Shown here piece by piece: positions 17,019 through 47,289 of a DNA stretch of 64,000 bases. The notes below the pieces were generated by a model. That model saw only the letters and a list, made by a program, of their open reading frames with translations, made no database searches and was not told the DNA's origin. Location of the stretch: the NCBI GenBank assembly GCA_027031495.1, contig JALVQA010000004.1:56070-120069 (forward strand), written 5' to 3'. Within the stretch, counting starts at the first letter, position 1, and each line of letters starts with the position of its first letter. This DNA is from Candidatus Moraniibacteriota bacterium. Lineage in GTDB: Bacteria; Patescibacteriota; Minisyncoccia; Moranbacterales; GCA-2747515. The translations under genes were made by a program, and so were the position numbers.

Positions 17019-19693
17019 TCATCTGCGTTGCATTTTTAGCGCGTCTTTCACAGACTGCTCATTTAAACCTGTAAGAGAAAGCGCAATGACAGCCGGATGA
17101 ATAGAAACGTCTGCTAAGTGTGTACGATCAATGACATACATTTCATCATACGTATTCACTTTTTCACTTCGCATATACACCGCAATCATTTGCACCGTAT
17201 GCGCAAAAAGTGCATTAAACCACGCCATGGCACGTCTATACCATGTATCGTGCACAGATGTTGCGCGTGGCGCTGGCGCATCTTTGCTGTACATATTGCT
17301 TTGTTTGGTATGTGTGCCAAATTCATTTTCCCACGCGCGCGCACTGATAGCACGCGCACGTTCATCACCACTACCGCCGCTATCTACCTGCGTTTGTTTT
17401 ACTTCTTTTTCTGCAACATGCGGCACATCCCAGACCCATCCACCACCGTCAGCATGCGCGCGTTTGCGATATACCGCATCATCTGGAACTGTTTTATATC
17501 CACTCGGCGGCGTGTATTTTTTACTGTATGCAATTGTTCCATCTGGCCTACGCACCGCGACATAGCCACCTCTATTCGGTAGCGTGATCGCACTGTATTT
17601 TGTATAAATCTTTTTCTCTTTACCTGGTGCAAGAACAATTTTTTTGTGCAACGGATGATTAACACTTTTATTTTTTGTGCTTCCCGTTACAATGCTCCAT
17701 CCACGCAAATTAACACTCTTTTTACTTTTATTTTTAATAACGACGTACTCCGTGCCAGTATCTTTGCCACGTGGATTTGGTGCGATGGCGACAATTTTGA
17801 TTTTTCTGTGTGGATATCGGTGCACATCTACAGAGAATTGCCGCATCACCTCTTCGCTTGCATCTTTGACGCGTACTTGTACCGTATAGTGTCCTTGTGC
17901 ATCATATGTGTGCGTTGTACTAGCTTTATAACTTCTGTGTCCATCACCAAAATCCCATCTGTACGAAAGTGCTTCCCCATCGAGATCATGTGCACGTACT
18001 GCAAAGTGTGCTGTGACATCTTTATAGATCTCGTCATCATACTCCAGTACATCAATAATCGGCAACATATTAAAGATATTGCGTGCACCGGGCGTGAGCG
18101 TTTTACTCCATCTGTAGACACCGCTTCTTTCATAATTCAGTGATACGTCCTCAGGTGCACTGCGTGTGTAGTGCAGGTGATCAACAACAACATACTCATC
18201 ACCGCGTGACGCCCACAGCGTAACACTATCACCATTGTTATTAAGCGCAAAACCAAAAGTCGGACGTCGTAACAGCAAAAATCCCTGCGGTGGCACTGCT
18301 ACGGAAGCAGGAAACGTATATCGTCCCGTTATGCTTTTATCACCAAGCACCCACCCGTGAAGATTTACACTTTTTGTATTCGGATTGTACAGTTCAATAT
18401 ATTCATTTATACTTTCGTCACCAGACGGGTTTGGTAAAATCTCATTGATGCGAATCTTCTCGCCCGCATAAGGCACTACGCACGGTTCTGTGCGAAAAAG
18501 TTGATGCGTACACTTCTTTGCTAGAGATGTATCACTGCGCGTGTGTGCAACATATGTATCGTTAGAAGGATTTTGACGATTTTTCCGTAAAAGGCAGCAT
18601 CCTTGTGGCCATGACCCCACGCTACAATATCACGCAGAACACGTTGATTATCAAGGAGAATAATTGCATTATTATCAGCAAATGACTTTTTGCGCACAAA
18701 ATCTGCCTTCCCTCTGTATGCACCATCCGCACGCGCAATTACAATCATGCCATGTGCCGGCAGGCGCACAGGTCCATCACCACACTCTTTTGTACCAAAC
18801 GTGCATATATTCTCACTTGTGCCGAATAGTGTGTCATCACATGTTTTAATTATCTTTGTCGCCGTTCGTCGTCGCACGTGCCATCCGGTAATGTCAACAG
18901 TGTGATCTGTCGTATTTTTAATGATAAGCGCATCATCTTTGTCGTGTATGGCAACAGCTGCAATAATGATATCGGACGATGATTTTTTGTAAAGACGCTT
19001 TTTGTAAGCATTGAGATCACATGTCTCTTTATTACTATCTTTGCCGTCATCATCACGCTTGTGCACCTCTTTTTCCGCTGCATCTGCACTTTCGTTTTTA
19101 TCACCTTTAAGCACACTTTGTGTGCTTGCAAAGTTATTTTCTTTCCCACTTTCTGACGAATCCTGACTGTATTTATTATTCTCCTTTGTGTTATTTTTTA
19201 TGTCGCCACCCTCTTGCCGCTTGTCATCTTCCTCCGCAGGTGTGTTATTGTTATCGCGTACAGTGTGTCCTTGCGTAGTATTATCATCAGAAGCATCACT
19301 CTCCCCATTTTCTTGCGTATGCTGTACGTTACCGCCCTCACTATTCCCGTCTGCTGTATCTACACTTTTTTCTCGCTGTACCTCTTCTTCTCTATTTACA
19401 TTATTGTCATCACCTTCATCTGCACTAGCGTCTATGTTGTCGCTTTCACTGTTATTTTCTGTAGCACTCCTCCTGCTGTATGCATTATCCCCTTCACTTT
19501 CGCTACTCACATTCTCCATAACGACACTTTCATATCCTTGATGTGTATCTATGTCTTCTTCTGCGTAAATTATACCGCCACTGTAAAATATCGCCCATGA
19601 AAAAATACTCACGCCCCATGCCGTGAGTATTCTAAAAAGAAAAAACATACGTCTCTCAACGCGCTCACGCCACCCCATCTTCTTTACCCTCAT
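17019..19693 (-). CDS. Large surface protein with three lamin-tail domains (LTD) and a PKD domain, interrupted by a frameshift near 18585-18600 in an A5 run
   Basis: There is an N-terminal signal/TM segment and an acidic low-complexity region. The first LTD is HDKDDALIIKNTTDHTVDITGW; after the frameshift come a second LTD (INEILPNPSGDESINEYIELYNPNTKSVNLHGW), a PKD domain (YRWDFGDGHRSYKASTTHTYDAQGHYTVQV) and a third LTD (PNPRGKDTGTEYVVIKNKSKKSVNLRGW). The two ORFs overlap in different frames at 18521-18620, and the start was chosen at an internal Met to avoid the upstream gene. Confidence 0.65.
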
Positions 19694-20288
19694 TTCTATC
19701 ATTACGGTTATCATCAGGAAGATTTTCCTCCGATTCATTATATGTCTTCCTCTGCATTTCCACAAGCATTGCTTTTACTGCATAAGGATCCGGTACGCTA
19801 CGAAAGAGGAAGCGTGTATGCTCTGCAGCGGTCTGCACTTCAACATCACCATAATTTAAAAGTGTCGGAATAATGCCACGTACATTACTTGTAATATCTT
19901 GAATTGTGTGAAAATACAATTCGCTTACCTGACGCGAAAAGAGACCTTTTTGTTCAATATTAACAACACGACGATTTGTTACAATCCATACATCAAGCCA
20001 ATAATCAATCCATGTTATAAAACCATAAAACCACAAGAAAACCACAAGAAAACTATCAACAAGGAGAATGAGTGGCATAATATGCTCAACACCAAGCGAT
20101 GATTCAAATAACCCAACAAAAAGTGTTCCCGCAAGCATTGTAAGAGCAACAAACGTTATAAGCACGTAATGCATCACAATATCAAACCAGTGTCGATGAA
20201 TTACTGAAAGAATAATCTCATCGTCGCGTTGCCCACGAAAGTGATAATGTGAAAAATCTTCTATACTATGTCCTACTTTCTTCGTCAT
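19665..20288 (-). CDS. Bacterial PH-domain (bPH_2/YdbT-like) membrane protein
   Basis: Two TM helices are followed by a PH-like region (WIVTNRRVVNIEQKGLFSRQVSELYFHTIQDI), the typical DUF304 architecture. Confidence 0.55.
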   Translation of the reverse strand: MTKKVGHSIEDFSHYHFRGQRDDEIILSVIHRHWFDIVMHYVLITFVALTMLAGTLFVGLFESSLGVEHIMPLILLVDSFLVVFLWFYGFITWIDYWLDVWIVTNRRVVNIEQKGLFSRQVSELYFHTIQDITSNVRGIIPTLLNYGDVEVQTAAEHTRFLFRSVPDPYAVKAMLVEMQRKTYNESEENLPDDNRNDRNEGKEDGVA

Positions 20289-20290
20289 AA

Positions 20291-20533
20291 TTAGAATGTT
20301 TTAAATGTTTCCGTACGTTCACGACCAATATTAAACATGGCGTATATATTGTCGCGTACTACAATGAAAAGTATAAATTGTGCAAGAACAAGGATTATTG
20401 TTGTAAAAACAAAAACTATTATTGCATGGTGAGCAAGTTTTTTATTGATTGTATACGTATGCAAATGATAAACAATCACCCATGTGAGGATGCCATACAC
20501 AACAAGACTTATAAGAAAAATAATATCAACCAT
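20291..20533 (-). CDS. Small hypothetical membrane protein (80 aa)
   Basis: It has two hydrophobic helices and sits between ruvB and the bPH gene on the same strand. Confidence 0.35.
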   Translation of the reverse strand: MVDIIFLISLVVYGILTWVIVYHLHTYTINKKLAHHAIIVFVFTTIILVLAQFILFIVVRDNIYAMFNIGRERTETFKTF

Positions 20534-20543
20534 AAAAAATAAG

Positions 20544-21605
20544 TTACATACCTAGGGCGCTGCGCATTTTTTCATAACGCGCCGGGATATTTATATTAAG
20601 ATGTTTAAATGCTGCCTCAAGGGCCACGCGACCACGCGGTGTACGCATAATAAAACCATGTTGAATGAGATACGGCTCATACACTTCTTCTATAGTATAC
20701 ACTTCCTCGCCAAGTGATGCAGCAAGTGTCTTTACACCAACAGGACCACCATGAAACACGGTAATGATTTTCTCAAGAAGTTGACGATCCATTGCTTCAA
20801 GGCCACTTTCATCAATGTCCAATAATTTCAATGCATCACACACAACTGTATGCGTCACCTCACTAAGATCGTGCGCTTGTGCATAGTCACGTACACGTCG
20901 CACGAGACGATTTGCAACACGTGGTGTCTGACGTGAACGGTGTGCAATCTCCTGCGCAGCATCATCGTGAATCACAATATCAAGAAGACGTGCACTACGC
21001 AAAACAATTTGCTTGATATCGTTTGGTGTATAAAACTCCAGTCGGTATGTGCTTCCAAAGCGATTGCGCAAAGGATTTGACAGTGCACCAATTTGTGTCG
21101 TTGCACCAATGAGGGTAAATTTTGGCAAGTCAAGTTGAAGCGTACGTGCACTTGGTCCCTTTCCAACGATAATATCAATCACACCATCTTCCATTGCCGG
21201 ATACAATACTTCCTCCACTGTCTTACGCAAGCGATGAATCTCATCAATAAAGAGTATATCGCCATCAGAAAGATTTGTCAGAATAGATCCAAGATCGCCA
21301 ACGCGTTCTATTGCTGGTCCACTTGTTACAGTAATACCAACACCCATTTCTTTCGCTATAATATGCGAAAGCGTTGTTTTACCAAGTCCAGCACTCCCGT
21401 AAAACAAGATATGATCAATTGGTTCGCCACGCTTGCGTGCCGCGTTGATCACAATTGACAAATTACGCTTTATCGCATCTTGACCAACATATTCAGTAAG
21501 TGTTTCTGGACGCAGGGCGCGATCAAATATTTTCTCATCACGCAAAAGAACAGTACTGATATCATGTTTGTATTCTTCCTTTTTTTGCGCTGTTTTAATA
21601 ACCAT
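20544..21605 (-). CDS. ruvB: Holliday junction branch-migration helicase RuvB
   Basis: LRPETLTEYVGQD...LFYGSAGLGKTTLSHIIAKEMG...DILFIDEIHRL is the AAA+ RuvB signature. Confidence 0.95.
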   Translation of the reverse strand: MVIKTAQKKEEYKHDISTVLLRDEKIFDRALRPETLTEYVGQDAIKRNLSIVINAARKRGEPIDHILFYGSAGLGKTTLSHIIAKEMGVGITVTSGPAIERVGDLGSILTNLSDGDILFIDEIHRLRKTVEEVLYPAMEDGVIDIIVGKGPSARTLQLDLPKFTLIGATTQIGALSNPLRNRFGSTYRLEFYTPNDIKQIVLRSARLLDIVIHDDAAQEIAHRSRQTPRVANRLVRRVRDYAQAHDLSEVTHTVVCDALKLLDIDESGLEAMDRQLLEKIITVFHGGPVGVKTLAASLGEEVYTIEEVYEPYLIQHGFIMRTPRGRVALEAAFKHLNINIPARYEKMRSALGM

Positions 21606-21640
21606 AAATCATTAGGTCACGTGTGTTTATATCTAGATAC

Positions 21641-21669
21641 TTGACAATTTTATAAACACGTGTTAGTAT
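21641..21669 (+). promoter_or_regulatory. Strong sigma70-type promoter (TTGACA-17-TAGTAT) driving a noncoding transcript
   Basis: A TTGACA (21641-21646), a 17-nt spacer and a TAGTAT (21664-21669) lie divergent from ruvB, with no CDS downstream. Confidence 0.5.
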
Positions 21670-21743
21670 CACACGTTGCACTCCTCGCAGAGATGTAGAG
21701 GGATGCAGATATGTAATGATGTACATTACAACACCTTTAAAGC

Positions 21744-21927
21744 ACTGAGTGTTCTGTAGACTCATGGGTAGTTCTATCTTTTCTACTCATGGCCGGATGA
21801 AGTGCCAAGATCGGGCAGGATGGTTATCGCACACTGTTTGTGATATACTGTGCTTCACCTCGACACTTCATCTTTCATCCGAGACCACAGATCCCGGACA
21901 CGTCTACAGAACTCTCAGTGTTTTTTT
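21744..21927 (+). ncRNA. Candidate structured sRNA (6S-RNA-like size and closing stem); identity unverified
   Basis: A 19-nt arm CACTGAGTGTTCTGTAGAC (21744-21762) pairs with GTCTACAGAACTCTCAGTG (21902-21920) with one mismatch and is followed by T7. The arms enclose about 180 nt with further internal helices (GGATGAAGTG/CACTTCATCC). The promoter lies about 65 nt upstream. Confidence 0.35.
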
Positions 21928-21992
21928 ACAAAAAACACTCTTCATAATCAGTGTACCACATTTTTATAAAGCACATTTATCTTGCATTAAAA

Positions 21993-22346
21993 TTACCGCA
22001 TTTCCGTAACAACCTTTGACACAACAGTACCGCCACACAGCGCATTGATGTAATTAATAATACCATTTCGTTGCATCCATACTTCTTGCGCCCACAAAGC
22101 ATTTTCCACAGATAATACAATTACTGATCCTGTATACTTATACGCACGTACTGCCTGAGTACCACGACGTCCATATTCCGCACGAATATAGCGATCACAA
22201 AGATAAAGAACCGTCTTTTCATCAACACAACATCCACCATTAGAATGTTTATACGCTTTTGGTACTTTCGCATTAGTTGGACACTTTAGCGCATTTTTTT
22301 TATCTTTATAACGATCAAGAACTGCTGATAATCGCTTCATACACAA
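21993..22346 (-). CDS. DUF721/DciA-like small protein downstream of dnaN
   Basis: It sits in the dnaA-dnaN-(DUF721) position. The C-terminal LSVENALWAQEVWMQRNGIINYINALCGG resembles DUF721. The assignment is weak. Confidence 0.45.
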   Translation of the reverse strand: MCMKRLSAVLDRYKDKKNALKCPTNAKVPKAYKHSNGGCCVDEKTVLYLCDRYIRAEYGRRGTQAVRAYKYTGSVIVLSVENALWAQEVWMQRNGIINYINALCGGTVVSKVVTEMR

Positions 22347-22360
22347 AAAATATATTTACA

Positions 22361-23500
22361 CTATTTGCGAATTGGCATAACAAGATAGAGAAATCGCTCA
22401 TCATCATCACTTTTTGCAACCGGTGTAATAACAACCGGTGATGCCGCACCCGAAAATGCAATACGTACTTTTTCACTACCGCAACGACTTATGCCATCAA
22501 GTACATAACGCGTATTGAGATAGATTTCTTGTACTTCGCCATGCGCTTCAACCTGCAGTGTTGTCACATTTTCTCCACGATCCTGCGACATTGCACTAAT
22601 TACACATGTGCTTTCATCAGGATTTATCGTCACTTTCATATCACTCGTTGTATTATTTGCAAAGGCATCAGCAAGTCGCAGTACGCGCTCACATTCCGCA
22701 CGCGACACAATGATGTGCGTTGCCGTCTCTTGCGGAATAATCTGCTGATAGTCAGGATATGTTCCAGAGATAAGACGCGAAACAATTGTCACGCCATCAA
22801 CTTCAAAAAAGATCTGACCATCACTTATATGCATCATTATCATTTTTGTCGCACTATCAGAAAGAATATATAAAATTTCAGCAATAGCACTCGCCGGGAC
22901 AATAATGGAATCAATGTCTTTTTGTATAGCTGCAGCTTCAATCGGTGCCACACTTTCACTAAGACGGAAACCATCTGTTGCAGCTACACGCATAGTATTA
23001 TCAGTAAAAACTATATTCACACCGGTTAATTCAGGGCGCGCTTCCGTTTTTGCAACACTTATCATCACACGTGACAACACAGAGCGAAATACATCTGACT
23101 GCACTGTTACTTCACCATAGATATTTTCCTTTTGCGGTATCGGTGGAAAATCAACTGGATTATACCCCTTTATTACTGCACGTGACGATCCACTTTCTAC
23201 AGCAATGTCAGTGTCAGATACCTGAGACACAGTTACCTGTGCACCATTGTCAAGTGATGCAATAAAACTATTGAGAAGTTGTGGTGGAATAACAACACTG
23301 CCAACTTCTTCAATTTTGCCACTAATTTCAATACGCACACCCATATCAAGGTTTGTAGCAGCACACGCAAGTATATTATTTTCTGTTGAGATAATGACAT
23401 TTTGTATAATCGGCAACAGCGATTGCTTTGCAAGAGCTTTTGTACTGTAGCGTAGTGCCCGATCAAGGTGTTCTTTTGTGCATGTAAATCGTAAAGCCAT
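22361..23500 (-). CDS. dnaN: DNA polymerase III beta sliding clamp
   Basis: MALRFTCTKEHLDRALRYSTKALAKQSLLPIIQNVII is DnaN-like. The start was moved to the internal Met at 23500 because the track ORF begins in the AT-rich upstream region. The gene follows dnaA. Confidence 0.9.
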   Translation of the reverse strand: MALRFTCTKEHLDRALRYSTKALAKQSLLPIIQNVIISTENNILACAATNLDMGVRIEISGKIEEVGSVVIPPQLLNSFIASLDNGAQVTVSQVSDTDIAVESGSSRAVIKGYNPVDFPPIPQKENIYGEVTVQSDVFRSVLSRVMISVAKTEARPELTGVNIVFTDNTMRVAATDGFRLSESVAPIEAAAIQKDIDSIIVPASAIAEILYILSDSATKMIMMHISDGQIFFEVDGVTIVSRLISGTYPDYQQIIPQETATHIIVSRAECERVLRLADAFANNTTSDMKVTINPDESTCVISAMSQDRGENVTTLQVEAHGEVQEIYLNTRYVLDGISRCGSEKVRIAFSGAASPVVITPVAKSDDDERFLYLVMPIRK

Positions 23501-23732
23501 AATAGTTATTACAATTAAATCAAATATATTTAGTTTATTATTATTAGCGCTGTGGAAAGTGTGGAAAAGTGCGATAAATGTAGTTATTATGCACACACTT
23601 TTCTGTGTATTATTAATGAATAAATGCATGTTTTTGTGTGCAAGACTGTAGATGTGGGATATCCACTTTTATGTGCACAGAGTATAACACAGTTTTATAC
23701 ACATGCACATGCGTACTTATGCACAATTTTAT
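23501..23732. promoter_or_regulatory. dnaA-dnaN intergenic DnaA-box cluster (oriC part)
   Basis: The AT-rich spacer carries TGTGGAAAG (23551), TGTGGAAAA (23560) and an overlapping inverted TGTGGGATA/TATCCAC (23653-23666). Confidence 0.5.
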
Positions 23733-25175
23733 TCACAGAGTGTGTAATTTTCGTTTCAATGTGTCAATGGTATCCTTTAGTGCCGCATCAGCAATAAGTT
23801 CTTTTTCAATTTTACGACACGCATGTATCACTGTTGTGTGATCACGTCCACCGCAGTGTGCGCCAATTTCAGGGTATGAATATGTAAGTTCCTCACGCAA
23901 AAGAAACATGGCAATTTGACGCGGGCGGACAATTGTTTTTTTGCGCACCTTTCCGATAATGTCGTCAGGTGTAATATTGAAATGTTGTGCGACAATATCA
24001 ATAACAGAAGAAGCGCTTCGTGCCGGACGACGATTCACGATTGTTGGTGCAAGAATTTCCTCCACAACAGCGCGCGAAGGGATTTTTTGCTGAAAAGTGC
24101 AGATAGCGACAACTTTATTGAGTGCGCCTTCCAGTTCACGAATATTACTTGCCACATTACGTGCAATGTAGCGTGCCGCATCTTCCGGAAGAATAATATC
24201 TTTTTCATCTGCTTTTTTTTGAAGAATTGCCACACGCGTTTCAAAGTCTGGTTGTGAGATATCAGCAATCATGCCACCTTCAAAGCGGGAACGCAAGCGA
24301 TCTTCCAGTGTTGCAATTGCATGCGGTGGTCTATCACTTGAGATGATAATCTGTTTATTTTTTTGGTAGAGAAAGTTGAAAATGTGAAAAAATTCATCTT
24401 GCGTTTTTTCTTTACCGGCAAGAAACTGAACGTCATCAATAATGAGGAGATCAATTGTTTGATAAAACTTTTTAAAATCTGATATTGTATTGTTATGTAT
24501 AGAATCTATAAGCTCGCTAGTAAAACGCTCTGATGATGTGTAGAGAACGCGCTTTGTTGGATCAGCACTAACAACAGCATTACCAATCGATTGAAGGATG
24601 TGTGTTTTACCAAGACCAACATCACCATAGATAAATAGCGGGTTGTATACTGTGCCAAGCGATTCACTTACAGTGCGACATGCGGCATGAGCGAGTTCAT
24701 TATGTTGCCCAACGACAAAATTACTGAACGTATAGCGAGGGTTGAGACATGTATTATAGGGCGGTGTTGTTTTTGCTGTTGGTTTTTGCTGAATATTTTT
24801 AGCCTGTTGAATTGGTTGTTTTTGCTGCTGTATACTTCGCTGTGGCGCTTTTTTGAGAATTGTGCTGATTGTTGAATTTCCTGTTCGTTTCTGCGTGACA
24901 GCGTCGATAGATTGTGGCGCACGTTGGGGTTGTGGCGAAAGAGTGCAATGGATACGTGTAATACTTTTGTCATGATTGCGCAGCGCTTGTAAAACAATGT
25001 CAGAGCATTTTTTCTCAATCCACTCCTTCGCAAATCCATTCGGTGTAGTGATAGTGGCGCACCCATCGTCGATTGATTGAATTGATGTGTTTTTAAACCA
25101 TGTAATAAAATTTGCACGAGAAATGGAGAGTTCTATTTCACCGAGTGCCGCCGCCCATAATTGTTGAAAATCCAT
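23733..25175 (-). CDS. dnaA: Chromosomal replication initiator DnaA
   Basis: It has the Walker A NPLFIYGDVGLGKTHIL, an AAA+ core, and a C-terminal DnaA-box-binding domain (RKKTIVRPRQIAMFLLREELTYSYPEIG). Confidence 0.95.
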   Translation of the reverse strand: MDFQQLWAAALGEIELSISRANFITWFKNTSIQSIDDGCATITTPNGFAKEWIEKKCSDIVLQALRNHDKSITRIHCTLSPQPQRAPQSIDAVTQKRTGNSTISTILKKAPQRSIQQQKQPIQQAKNIQQKPTAKTTPPYNTCLNPRYTFSNFVVGQHNELAHAACRTVSESLGTVYNPLFIYGDVGLGKTHILQSIGNAVVSADPTKRVLYTSSERFTSELIDSIHNNTISDFKKFYQTIDLLIIDDVQFLAGKEKTQDEFFHIFNFLYQKNKQIIISSDRPPHAIATLEDRLRSRFEGGMIADISQPDFETRVAILQKKADEKDIILPEDAARYIARNVASNIRELEGALNKVVAICTFQQKIPSRAVVEEILAPTIVNRRPARSASSVIDIVAQHFNITPDDIIGKVRKKTIVRPRQIAMFLLREELTYSYPEIGAHCGGRDHTTVIHACRKIEKELIADAALKDTIDTLKRKLHTL

Positions 25176-29851: not shown

Positions 29852-31099
29852 ATGGCGATACTTCACGAGAAAATAAGAAAGATGCTAAAAATGCCAATTC
29901 ATTGGTTTGTGTGGAGTGGCGTCATTTTGTTTTCCTCCTACGCAATTTTGTTGCTGTTGCTTACATACCTATACAACACCCTTGCCATAGAGCAGAATAT
30001 CAATGATATTATTGCCGATAATAATGCAACAACACTTTTTCTTTATCAAAAAAAGATGACGGCACGCAACGGTGTTAATACAGGCAATCTTTTACCAACA
30101 GCGCCATTGCCAAAGATTGACACGGCACGCATGAAACGACAAGGATGTGTTACGGACGGTCTTTTGTCTGGCTATGGCGATGAAGAGAAAAACGTTGAAC
30201 TTATCAATCGTTTGCCATGTTATTATTTGCATCGTGCTGTGGAGACATGGCTTGAGGCACCTAACTGGTACAAAATCAATCGTATTAGGAGTTATATTGT
30301 GCGAAAACCGATTCTTTATGGCATGTTCATCGCGGAAGCAGTCAACACGAAGGAACACTATATCAACACACAAACAGGCAAAAGGTTTCGCTTTAAAAAA
30401 ATGTGTAAGCCGGGTACAAATGGACGGTGGGGCAAAAATACGTGTGTACCTGATTTTGATAGACGGGAGTATCGTGCCTATATAACACAGATTATGAAAG
30501 AAGCGATTGATAATGATATACAAGTATTTCTGATAGGGCAAGTACAAATACAAGATGCGCGGCGTGTAGAACAATCTGATATTGAGGATGTTCTCGCTGC
30601 TGTGCGTAAATATGCAGCGCAAAAAGGTGTTGATATTGCGATTGGCGCACAAACAAATGATGCGACAGATAAAGATTACTTGCGACTTTTTGACTTTATT
30701 GAAGGCGGTGTCGGCCTACATCCTGATGGCAGTATTGAAGATGGACCATGTTTTTCGCGTTATCTCAGAGAACATAACTGGTGTTGGGCTCTTTTATGGC
30801 ATGAAAAATATACAAAAAAAGCACGTAATGTTTTCGTGCACCTTGATTGGAGTGGTATGCATGATGATGATATGATGACGTTTGTCTCAATGGATCGCGA
30901 CATGCGTGCGTATGTGCTCAAGAAACTGTATACATTTTATACTAGACAGGATATAGGATTTCTTTTGCCGGTCTTTACAGCGTTGCCACATGAGCATGAT
31001 GGTTGTTATGGCAATAGAAAGCGCTACTATAGTGCGGATAATGCGTACTCATGCAAAGATGAGGACGTTATAAAAAGTATATTGACAAATTATAAATAA
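29852..31099 (+). CDS. Hypothetical membrane-anchored protein (415 aa)
   Basis: There is an N-terminal TM segment (WFVWSGVILFSSYAILLLLLTYL). Several Cys/Trp-rich segments are present, with no recognisable catalytic motif. Confidence 0.45.
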   Translation: MAILHEKIRKMLKMPIHWFVWSGVILFSSYAILLLLLTYLYNTLAIEQNINDIIADNNATTLFLYQKKMTARNGVNTGNLLPTAPLPKIDTARMKRQGCVTDGLLSGYGDEEKNVELINRLPCYYLHRAVETWLEAPNWYKINRIRSYIVRKPILYGMFIAEAVNTKEHYINTQTGKRFRFKKMCKPGTNGRWGKNTCVPDFDRREYRAYITQIMKEAIDNDIQVFLIGQVQIQDARRVEQSDIEDVLAAVRKYAAQKGVDIAIGAQTNDATDKDYLRLFDFIEGGVGLHPDGSIEDGPCFSRYLREHNWCWALLWHEKYTKKARNVFVHLDWSGMHDDDMMTFVSMDRDMRAYVLKKLYTFYTRQDIGFLLPVFTALPHEHDGCYGNRKRYYSADNAYSCKDEDVIKSILTNYK

Positions 31100-31246
31100 T
31101 GTGATATATTATGTTGTCGCGTGGATATATGCAAAAATATACCACAAATGACCGCTCGTATACACAATGTTTCCACAGAGTTATCCACAGTTTGTGCAGT
31201 GGAATAATATTCTGTATATGCGCGCTAAGTACATAATATTCATTTT

Positions 31247-46944: not shown

Positions 46945-47289
46945 ATGAAAAAAATAAATCTGATTGTAATTTCAAAGATAATAGCATCCATTATTCTAAT
47001 ATGTCAGTTCATCCCTTCTACTTGGTGGACAATATTTGTTATGTGGGCATACTCTGACTTAGCAAATTTACTATCTTTCCCATTGGAATACCTTTTATTG
47101 ATTGGTATGTATTTAATGCCACTATCTTTTTCTATCTTTTCTATTTTATATTCTAAACATTTCTACTCTGATAATAACTATAAAAAATATATAAGTAGAT
47201 TGTTATTTGTTTTCAATTTGTTATTACTCATTTTTATGATTCACTTTTTCATTTCAGCAGGGATTGGAATGTATCCGGCATTTGACTAA
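46945..47289 (+). CDS. Hypothetical small membrane protein (114 aa)
   Basis: It has 3-4 hydrophobic helices and sits in the AT-rich islet next to the recombinase. Confidence 0.4.
   Translation: MKKINLIVISKIIASIILICQFIPSTWWTIFVMWAYSDLANLLSFPLEYLLLIGMYLMPLSFSIFSILYSKHFYSDNNYKKYISRLLFVFNLLLLIFMIHFFISAGIGMYPAFD

Follow-up and report, generated by a model that had tools for sequence, protein, structure and literature searches.

Several classes of bacterial RNA serve as points of comparison for the locus described here. The raiA and OLE RNAs and the Weinberg/Breaker motifs are available in Rfam, while the Y RNA and YrlA-type RNAs, which are partners of the Ro protein Rsr, possess a long end-pairing stem whose inner part is sequence-conserved (suggesting a protein site) and whose upper part is variable, an arrangement that resembles the present RNA. 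6S RNA is rod-shaped, a closing and an apical stem flanking a central bubble that has relatively little structure and whose open 5' strand templates product RNA (pRNA), and a hairpin in the 3' strand of the bubble is known from Firmicutes 6S-1 (PMC8876501). Ms1 RNA of Actinobacteria is a 6S-like RNA of ~300 nt with a central bubble and extra terminal hairpins, which is missed by sequence and covariance-model searches for 6S and displays synteny with one flanking gene (PMC9130861). The present analysis concerns a gene for a structured RNA that occupies the 387-nt gap between ruvB and a DciA-like gene, on the + strand of a 64-kb stretch of DNA (the window) whose source was identified by its RuvB protein as Candidatus Moraniibacteriota, of the Candidate Phyla Radiation (CPR/Patescibacteria). 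The preferred reading, with a probability of roughly 0.55, is that of an undescribed structured-RNA gene of the CPR with a protein-binding, trans-acting product. The RNA family is new in the sense that it has no known relatives and an architecture unlike that of its nearest analogue, while its mechanism may be conventional.

The conservation of the RNA was established by two routes of sampling. Through the RuvB protein, 80 ruvB loci related to the window were gathered, more than 30 of which were matched by nhmmer with the intergenic query, always just upstream of ruvB and on the opposite strand, delimiting the conserved part to window positions ~21739-21927. A covariance model (R1; 27 sequences, 164 positions, 47 pairs) showed 50 of the 80 loci to contain the RNA at full length, antisense to ruvB throughout, along with 2 more that are cut by contig ends; in the window it finds exactly one copy, at 21742-21921 (110.6 bits). 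Structural conservation in related genomes, which the initial annotation had proposed to look for, is thus evident and is accompanied by strong covariation. Sampling independent of ruvB was performed by searching metagenomes for a pattern representing the conserved 3' half of the RNA, which recovers 34 known copies with no false matches and yielded at least 120 loci; R1 together with a broader model (R2) confirmed 114 of 120 among the matches listed, with one copy each. Overall, the RNA is conserved in more than 160 sampled loci/genomes of CPR bacteria, and no copy was found on the viral contigs searched.

The core of the RNA, 180 nt in the window and 164 nt in the consensus, folds as a four-way junction comprising a closing stem (P1), two hairpins (P2 and P4) and a long arm (P3), and not as a rod with an open bubble. 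P1 corresponds to an inverted repeat with arms of 23 nt, 91% complementary and 140 nt apart; the 19-bp helix with one mismatch around ~140 nt reported in the initial annotation forms its central part. Pairing is strongly supported by comparison. In the seed alignment, made with plain MAFFT and given its structure by RNAalifold and by explicit counting of pairs, pairing extends to 96.6% of cells, as against 39.5-46.9% when slid, compensatory (double) changes occur in 26 of 42 pairs, and none of 500 shuffles reaches the score. The metagenome alignment, which contains no sequence used in the model but was fitted to it, so that the structure is somewhat favoured, has 93.7% of cells paired (44.3-50.2% when slid) and compensatory changes in 34 of 47 pairs over 680 cells, with the score again reached by 0 of 500 shuffles. 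A mutual-information scan of 127 unique sequences recovered every helix and added two pairs to P1 and one to P4; the same scan returned no pseudoknot or other tertiary covariation. The predicted transcript has a minimum free energy (MFE) z-score of -6.7 against shuffles and the reverse strand one of -7.1; since both strands fold equally well (z ~ -7), folding energy says nothing about the strand. The structure pairs, in contrast, contain 179 G·U cells as against 12 A·C cells, which demonstrates that the structure is selected on the window + strand, opposite to ruvB; the same strand is given by the promoter and terminator statistics described below.

The elements of the fold differ in their conservation. 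The outer P1a is variable and heavily covarying, whereas the inner P1b (CUGUAGAC/GUCUACAG) is near-invariant in the main clade and covaries in distant members (U-A to C-G, G-C to A-U). P2 is connected by linkers of only 2 and 4 nt and has compensatory changes in 6-7 of its 8 pairs; a G·U pair of its stem is invariant in the first 27-sequence alignment, and its loop motif CUAUCUUUU does not vary within the main clade, other clades having a GUAA tetraloop or A/U-rich loops in its stead. In P3, the family consensus of the internal loop is YAG... opposite CCUCGR, and that of the tip is GGU-UUCG-RCU, with the G·U at the tip invariant (78/78); GGUUUCGRCU and CCUCGR are the best-conserved blocks of the whole family, reduced variants included. 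Insertions are accommodated in the P2 loop (~100-140 nt), in the middle of P3 (11-86 nt) and at the P3 tip (21-86 nt).

As side observations, the large lineage-specific insertions resemble extra hairpins by eye; those of ~100-140 nt in the P2 loop occur in loci L002, L003, L004, L007, L017 and L146, those of 54-86 nt in mid-P3 in L044, L040, L125, L126, L118 and L161, and those of 76-86 nt at the P3 tip in L016, L027 and L009. For the P3 internal loop, a kink-turn with tandem G·A pairs was considered but abandoned, the counts at positions 65/106 (U-A 53, C-G 29, U·G 10, C·A 31) being those of a Watson-Crick pair. A tertiary contact of the same loop (AGAU) with the P2 loop (AUCU) was likewise rejected for want of covariation support, since AGAC replaces AGAU with no matching change in the partner and entire clades lack the P2 motif.

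A reduced variant of the RNA was recognised from weak R2 matches in five ruvB loci of more distant CPR lineages (one labelled Kuenenbacteria), which proved real on inspection. These members are ~113 nt in length and possess their own TTGACA promoter and terminator, a complementary P1 and a P3 arm tipped by GGUUUCGAC; where P2 would be expected they have the motif ACGAC(A/G)AGCAUGGG in common, and P4 is essentially gone. As the reduced variant retains P1 and P3 only, these two elements constitute the universal core, to which P2, P4 and the large insertions are peripheral. In four of the five loci (L055, L056, L064 and L068) a gene lies between the RNA and ruvB, which is an aminopeptidase in L056 and L064 and an open reading frame (ORF) without Pfam match in L068; the aminopeptidases of L056 and L064 belong to two different families (M18 and M17).

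The RNA appears to belong to none of the families 6S, signal recognition particle (SRP) RNA, RNase P RNA, transfer-messenger RNA (tmRNA) or other Rfam families. In Rfam 15 the window copy has no family match even at permissive thresholds, and the same holds for its relatives (L021, 20 whole loci at the gathering threshold and 18 diverse members at E <= 10 with lax filters), the leftovers being weak, non-recurrent matches to terminator-like hairpins in the flanks. SRP RNA (4.5S/small cytoplasmic RNA), whose apex motif the initial annotation had not found by eye, gives no match at E <= 10, and the apex is GGU-UUCG-RCU or an extended hairpin, whereas domain IV of SRP RNA has a GNRA-type tetraloop next to a symmetric and an asymmetric loop. 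RNase P RNA, which has a P4 pseudoknot made by the conserved regions CR-I and CR-V, was discarded on the basis of its missing Rfam match, the lack of pseudoknot covariation and the small size of the present RNA, and tmRNA or a tRNA-like RNA on the basis of the missing Rfam match and of ARAGORN, which detects no tRNA- or tmRNA-like feature in 21500-22100. In the literature no description of this RNA, of a CPR 6S RNA or of a CPR lineage-specific structured RNA was found, and two motif catalogues hold no entry for a ruvB-linked RNA.

Among the described systems, 6S RNA (SsrS; RF00013 and related) deserves the closest comparison, being the identity favoured by the initial annotation. Both RNAs have a sigma-70-type promoter of their own (a strong one in the present family), a core of comparable size (~165-180 nt, or 164-180 nt when the consensus is included), a closing stem that is long and irregular and a second arm of the same kind with a loop cap, and for P4 there is a precedent in the 3'-side central hairpin of Firmicutes 6S-1 (PMC8876501). 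A highly divergent 6S-type RNA that binds the primary-sigma RNA polymerase holoenzyme through open-promoter mimicry, with P1 and P3 as arms and the junction as the bubble, could be envisaged, the more so as the lack of a 6S report from the CPR may signify an unfilled niche. Such an identity is nevertheless unlikely. No 6S model match was obtained for ~40 members even at E <= 10. Where the central bubble that the initial annotation proposed to look for would lie, the 5' strand is taken up by a conserved, covariation-supported 8-bp hairpin between its very short linkers and the 3' strand by a 7-8-bp hairpin; the centre is a tight four-way junction, with no open template strand. In length, the window core and the consensus fit the ~160-200 nt of 6S RNA, and members of only ~113 nt also occur, with a supposed bubble of 11 nt opposite ~3-5 nt; these members and the 5' central hairpin do not support 6S membership. 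Furthermore, 6S RNAs exhibit little sequence conservation, as opposed to the long invariant blocks here. A 6S-like function, i.e., RNA polymerase binding, could still be present, as computation leaves room for it.

The remaining analogues share other features. Like Ms1, which binds the RNA polymerase core, the RNA is lineage-restricted, structured, negative in 6S searches and syntenic; it is shorter, however, and lacks the central bubble and any sequence or model similarity to Ms1. With raiA, OLE and the Weinberg/Breaker motifs it has in common a covariation-defined, multi-stem architecture, restriction to one bacterial lineage and an orphan function, while differing in its lack of an Rfam match, in its occurrence in the CPR and, with respect to many of them, in its clearly defined, near-universal own promoter and terminator. 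From Y RNA and YrlA it is distinguished by the missing Rfam match and the lack of a tRNA-like module, the likeness having been checked by Rfam alone, and no rsr gene was present among the neighbouring genes identified with Pfam.

The RNA is associated with its own expression signals. The near-consensus promoter TTGACA-17-TAGTAT that the initial annotation placed here, directed away from ruvB, was verified with a score of 10/12; promoters of this exact TTGACA plus extended -10 class number only four in the 64-kb window. Signal statistics were compiled from 138 unique members with both flanks, comparing the RNA strand with the control orientation. A promoter of at least 9/12 precedes 131/138 members, as against 11/138 in the control orientation, and one of at least 10/12 precedes 117/138 as against 0; the TG extension occurs in 113 of the 131 with at least 9/12. 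P1 begins at a median distance of 43 nt (range 7-100) from the end of the -10 element, transcription being predicted to start ~7 nt after the latter, and the intervening leader differs in length (7-100 nt) and sequence among relatives; in the window, its MFE fold consists of two local hairpins (~21676-21709 and 21712-21731). Terminators accompany 100/138 members (37/138 in the control orientation), in the form of a U-run that immediately follows P1, the arrangement of the window (34/138), or of a separate hairpin with a U-tract within 110 nt (66/138). The T7 end noted earlier was found, although the window terminator is missed by a simple terminator scan because the enclosed 'loop' measures 140 nt. 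The tract is part of an A/T palindrome, AGTGTTTTTT-TAC-AAAAAACACT, at 21917-21939, and hence looks like a bidirectional terminator common to the RNA and the convergent DciA-like gene. The independent, housekeeping-type small RNA (sRNA) with its own promoter and terminator that had been postulated is thus borne out across the family.

A conserved box, GTCGC(T/G) or (A/G)TCA, was observed 5-8 nt past the -10 element in most members (for example L019, L025 and L015) and reads GTTGCAC in the window (21675-21681). The box recurs at the predicted transcription start across clades with differing P1 sequences, and could be a conserved RNA 5' end, a discriminator-type promoter element or a processing signal. 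A helix between this 5' box (GUCGC...) and the 3' strand of P1a was explored by eye and dismissed as inconsistent across clades.

The gene is furthermore stand-alone and non-coding. Of the 49 ruvB-derived loci examined, nearly all have a far-side gene that converges on the RNA, although its identity varies (usually a PilB-type ATPase, also TrmB, or dnaA-dnaN-dciA in the window). As the downstream gene is convergent, a cis-regulatory 5' leader or riboswitch is ruled out, and the terminator, moreover, directly follows the RNA. A single ORF overlaps the region (21749-22009, 86 aa); it has no family match in Pfam or NCBIfam, and its frame is broken in 73/104 relatives; in the window the core has stops in all frames, and core lengths across relatives have no multiple-of-three preference. 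The absence of a coding sequence claimed by the initial annotation is consequently upheld, and the candidate coding region 21749-22009 was rejected.

These results also bear on the proposition that there is no RNA gene at all, the locus being instead a chance palindrome, a repeat resembling a miniature inverted-repeat transposable element (MITE), an origin-near DNA element or a mis-called coding region. The long inverted repeat, the overlapping ORF and the location beside dnaA-dnaN, ~1.5 kb from a local GC-skew minimum, would be in keeping with it. Nevertheless, its probability is practically nil, as it is already refuted by covariation, strand asymmetry, expression signals and the broken ORF; the G·U asymmetry and the oriented promoter and terminator need an RNA. 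A MITE or other repeat is further contradicted by the P1 arm sequence being unique in the window, by the single copy per locus at a fixed position and by the negative viral contigs, and the dnaA context is found solely in the window and a single relative.

A stand-alone RNA with a ligand-sensing (riboswitch-like) or catalytic (ribozyme-like) role, in which P1 serves as a fold-dependent terminator, is very unlikely. The multi-helix junction with conserved junction and internal-loop nucleotides is of the appropriate kind, and P1 doubles as terminator stem in the 34/138 members of the window type. Against this stand the lack of a co-oriented downstream gene, the lack of pseudoknot or tertiary covariation, the absence of a riboswitch or ribozyme match in the Rfam searches and the dispensability of P2 and P4 in some lineages.

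The preferred reading of a protein-binding, trans-acting RNA can be put together as follows. A sigma-70-type promoter would drive transcription away from ruvB through a variable leader and then a four-way junction of ~165-180 nt, ending at a terminator signal formed by P1 and the U-tract (as in the window) or by a separate hairpin and U-tract. The resulting RNA, presumably stable and abundantly made, would act in trans by binding a protein partner, for which the inner stem P1b (base-paired and yet sequence-conserved), the P3 internal loop and the P3 tip would provide the recognition surface, with P2, P4 and the lineage-specific insertions at the periphery. Protein binding is suggested because some paired segments retain their sequence as well as their pairing, the G·U at the P3 tip never varies, insertions are tolerated and the reduced form consists of P1 and P3.

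Certain considerations weigh against this proposal. The transcript ends, abundance and processing it assumes are all deduced from sequence, the attribute 'protein-binding' derives solely from the pattern of conservation, and copy counts are per locus (ruvB loci, metagenome loci) and not per genome. In addition, the linkage to ruvB is deep, extends to the reduced variants and could denote a local or ruvB-related role instead of a general housekeeping one, while the P2 loop, which in the main clade is a conserved single strand of 11 nt, would suit a base-pairing seed. The last point leads to the alternative of a trans-acting base-pairing sRNA, whose pyrimidine-rich P2 loop (CUAUCUUUU) and P4 loop (GCUCCUAUG) would pair with purine-rich ribosome-binding regions of target mRNAs. 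The P4 loop resembles an anti-Shine-Dalgarno sequence, most main-clade members having CUCCU in it and another subgroup an AUCUU similar to the P2 loop, and AAAGATAG, complementary to the P2 loop, is found at 7 sites of the window where ~2 would be expected. However, the surplus sites include the RNA gene and a cluster that lies antisense to coding sequence within AT-rich DNA; each of the loop motifs is confined to certain lineages, being lost or of GNRA type in other clades, whereas the universal parts are the structured P1b, P3 loop and P3 tip; and the reduced variant lacks both the P2 and the P4 loop. Seed-type sRNAs, moreover, rarely exhibit so much covariation-supported architecture, and a base-pairing role, though the likeliest of the alternatives, is overall unlikely. 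As for the cluster mentioned, three AAAGATAG copies lie within 70 nt at 47071-47139 on the - strand, antisense to ORF 46945-47289, and probably reflect a composition or codon-repeat effect and not a target site.

The association of the family with ruvB is deep. As divergent upstream neighbour, ruvB is present in 50/50 positive genome loci and in 79 of the 84 RNA-first metagenome loci with enough flank, among the matches listed, and the linkage persists in distant reduced variants while the other neighbours change. In most members, the sequence abutting the -35 element of the RNA reads TGnTAnnnT on the opposite strand (TGTTACAAT, TGGTACACT; for example at ~2543-2560 in L019 and at the equivalent place in L023 and L008). 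This constitutes an extended -10 element that faces ruvB and lies within a few bases of the RNA -35, so that the two promoters stand back to back and overlap; the ruvB leader would be very short if this promoter is used. A local role can thus be conceived, either with the RNA promoter setting ruvB expression by occlusion or coupling, or with the RNA acting on RuvB or recombination, and is distinctly unlikely. Promoter interplay neither requires nor can explain selection on ~50 base pairs of RNA structure, and five low-scoring members without a ruvB neighbour retain PilB, promoter, fold and terminator. The back-to-back -10 is missing in the window (21625-21640) and in its closest relative (L001), and the aminopeptidase gene intervenes between RNA and ruvB in L056 and L064. 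Most simply, the linkage represents an old promoter pair that is hard to separate.

By analogy with the mimicry of an open promoter by 6S RNA, the branched RNA might mimic a Holliday junction and titrate RuvAB, which would explain its adjacency to ruvB across at least two deeply diverged CPR groups in which other neighbours change. This idea is highly improbable, and is weakened by reduced variants devoid of two of the four arms, by the five members without ruvB and by the simpler account that abutting promoters offer. Should the ruvB link prove functional, it would amount to a new kind of role for RNA in recombination.

CPR/Patescibacteria account for a large part of bacterial diversity and possess tiny genomes with little non-coding DNA. 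Occurrence in more than 160 sampled genomes, one of the strongest promoter types of the genome, ~50 covarying pairs and invariant blocks point to an indispensable function in these streamlined cells. The family as defined (alignment, structure, two covariance models and boundaries; coordinates in Table 1) is ready for RNA annotation, metatranscriptome searches and use as bait for a partner, and it corrects a tempting '6S RNA' label that would otherwise be liable to propagate.

Table 1. Coordinates of the RNA gene, its elements and neighbouring genes in the window, and of the reduced variants in the loci named
Feature	Coordinates	Strand	Remarks
-35 hexamer	21641-21646	+	TTGACA; same place in nearly all family members
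Extended -10	21661-21669	+	TGtTAGTAT (TG, 21661-21662; TAGTAT, 21664-21669); 17-nt spacer after -35
5' leader	21676-21738	+	From predicted start ~7 nt past -10
P1, 5' strand	21739-21761	+	Outer P1a, 21739-21752; 2x2 internal loop, 21753-21754; inner P1b UGUAGAC, 21755-21761
P2 hairpin	21764-21790	+	8-bp stem; 11-nt loop UUCUAUCUUUU, 21772-21782
P3 long arm	21795-21873	+	P3a/P3a', 21795-21806 with 21862-21873; P3b/c, 21813-21824 with 21847-21859
P3 asymmetric internal loop	21807-21812 opposite 21860-21861	+	AAGAUC opposite UC; conserved
P3 tip extension	21826-21846	+	21 nt, window-specific; UUCG loop instead in most members
P4 hairpin	21876-21897	+	7/7 pairs with compensatory changes in metagenome set
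P1, 3' strand	21902-21924	+	Closing stem
U7 tract	21921-21927	+	With P1 as stem, intrinsic-terminator-like 3' end
ruvB	20544-21605	-	Divergent from RNA
DciA-like gene	21993-22346	-	Convergent with RNA
dnaN	22361-23629	-	
dnaA	23733-25175	-	
Reduced variant, L055	1266-1392	-	
Reduced variant, L056	1232-1358	-	
Reduced variant, L064	1245-1365	-	
Reduced variant, L068	1625-1747	-	
Reduced variant, L073	2644-2766	-	

The dnaA-dnaN-dciA arrangement is peculiar to the window and its closest relative among the ruvB loci and, not being conserved, was dropped as a functional clue. When profiled over 19000-25000, the local cumulative GC skew has its minimum at ~23200-23650 (dnaN start/dnaA-dnaN spacer), ~1.5 kb from the RNA gene; the minimum fits a nearby replication origin. 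A cluster of DnaA-box-like 9-mers was also observed on the + strand at ~31110-31215, just 3' of a strong promoter (31082-31110), comprising an exact TTATCCACA (31181-31189) along with GTGGATATA, TATACCACA and TTATTCCAC (reverse strand); this region, ~6 kb from dnaA, may be of oriC type or DnaA-regulated.

A second compact promoter-to-terminator unit runs from 11376 down to ~11215 on the - strand of the window. It has no Rfam match even at E <= 10 and a fold z-score of -4.2. The promoter TTGACA-17-TGcTATAGT is followed by ~125 nt without an ORF, the hairpin CAGTACAT...ATGTACTG and a U5 run, making this unit a candidate for a second sRNA gene.

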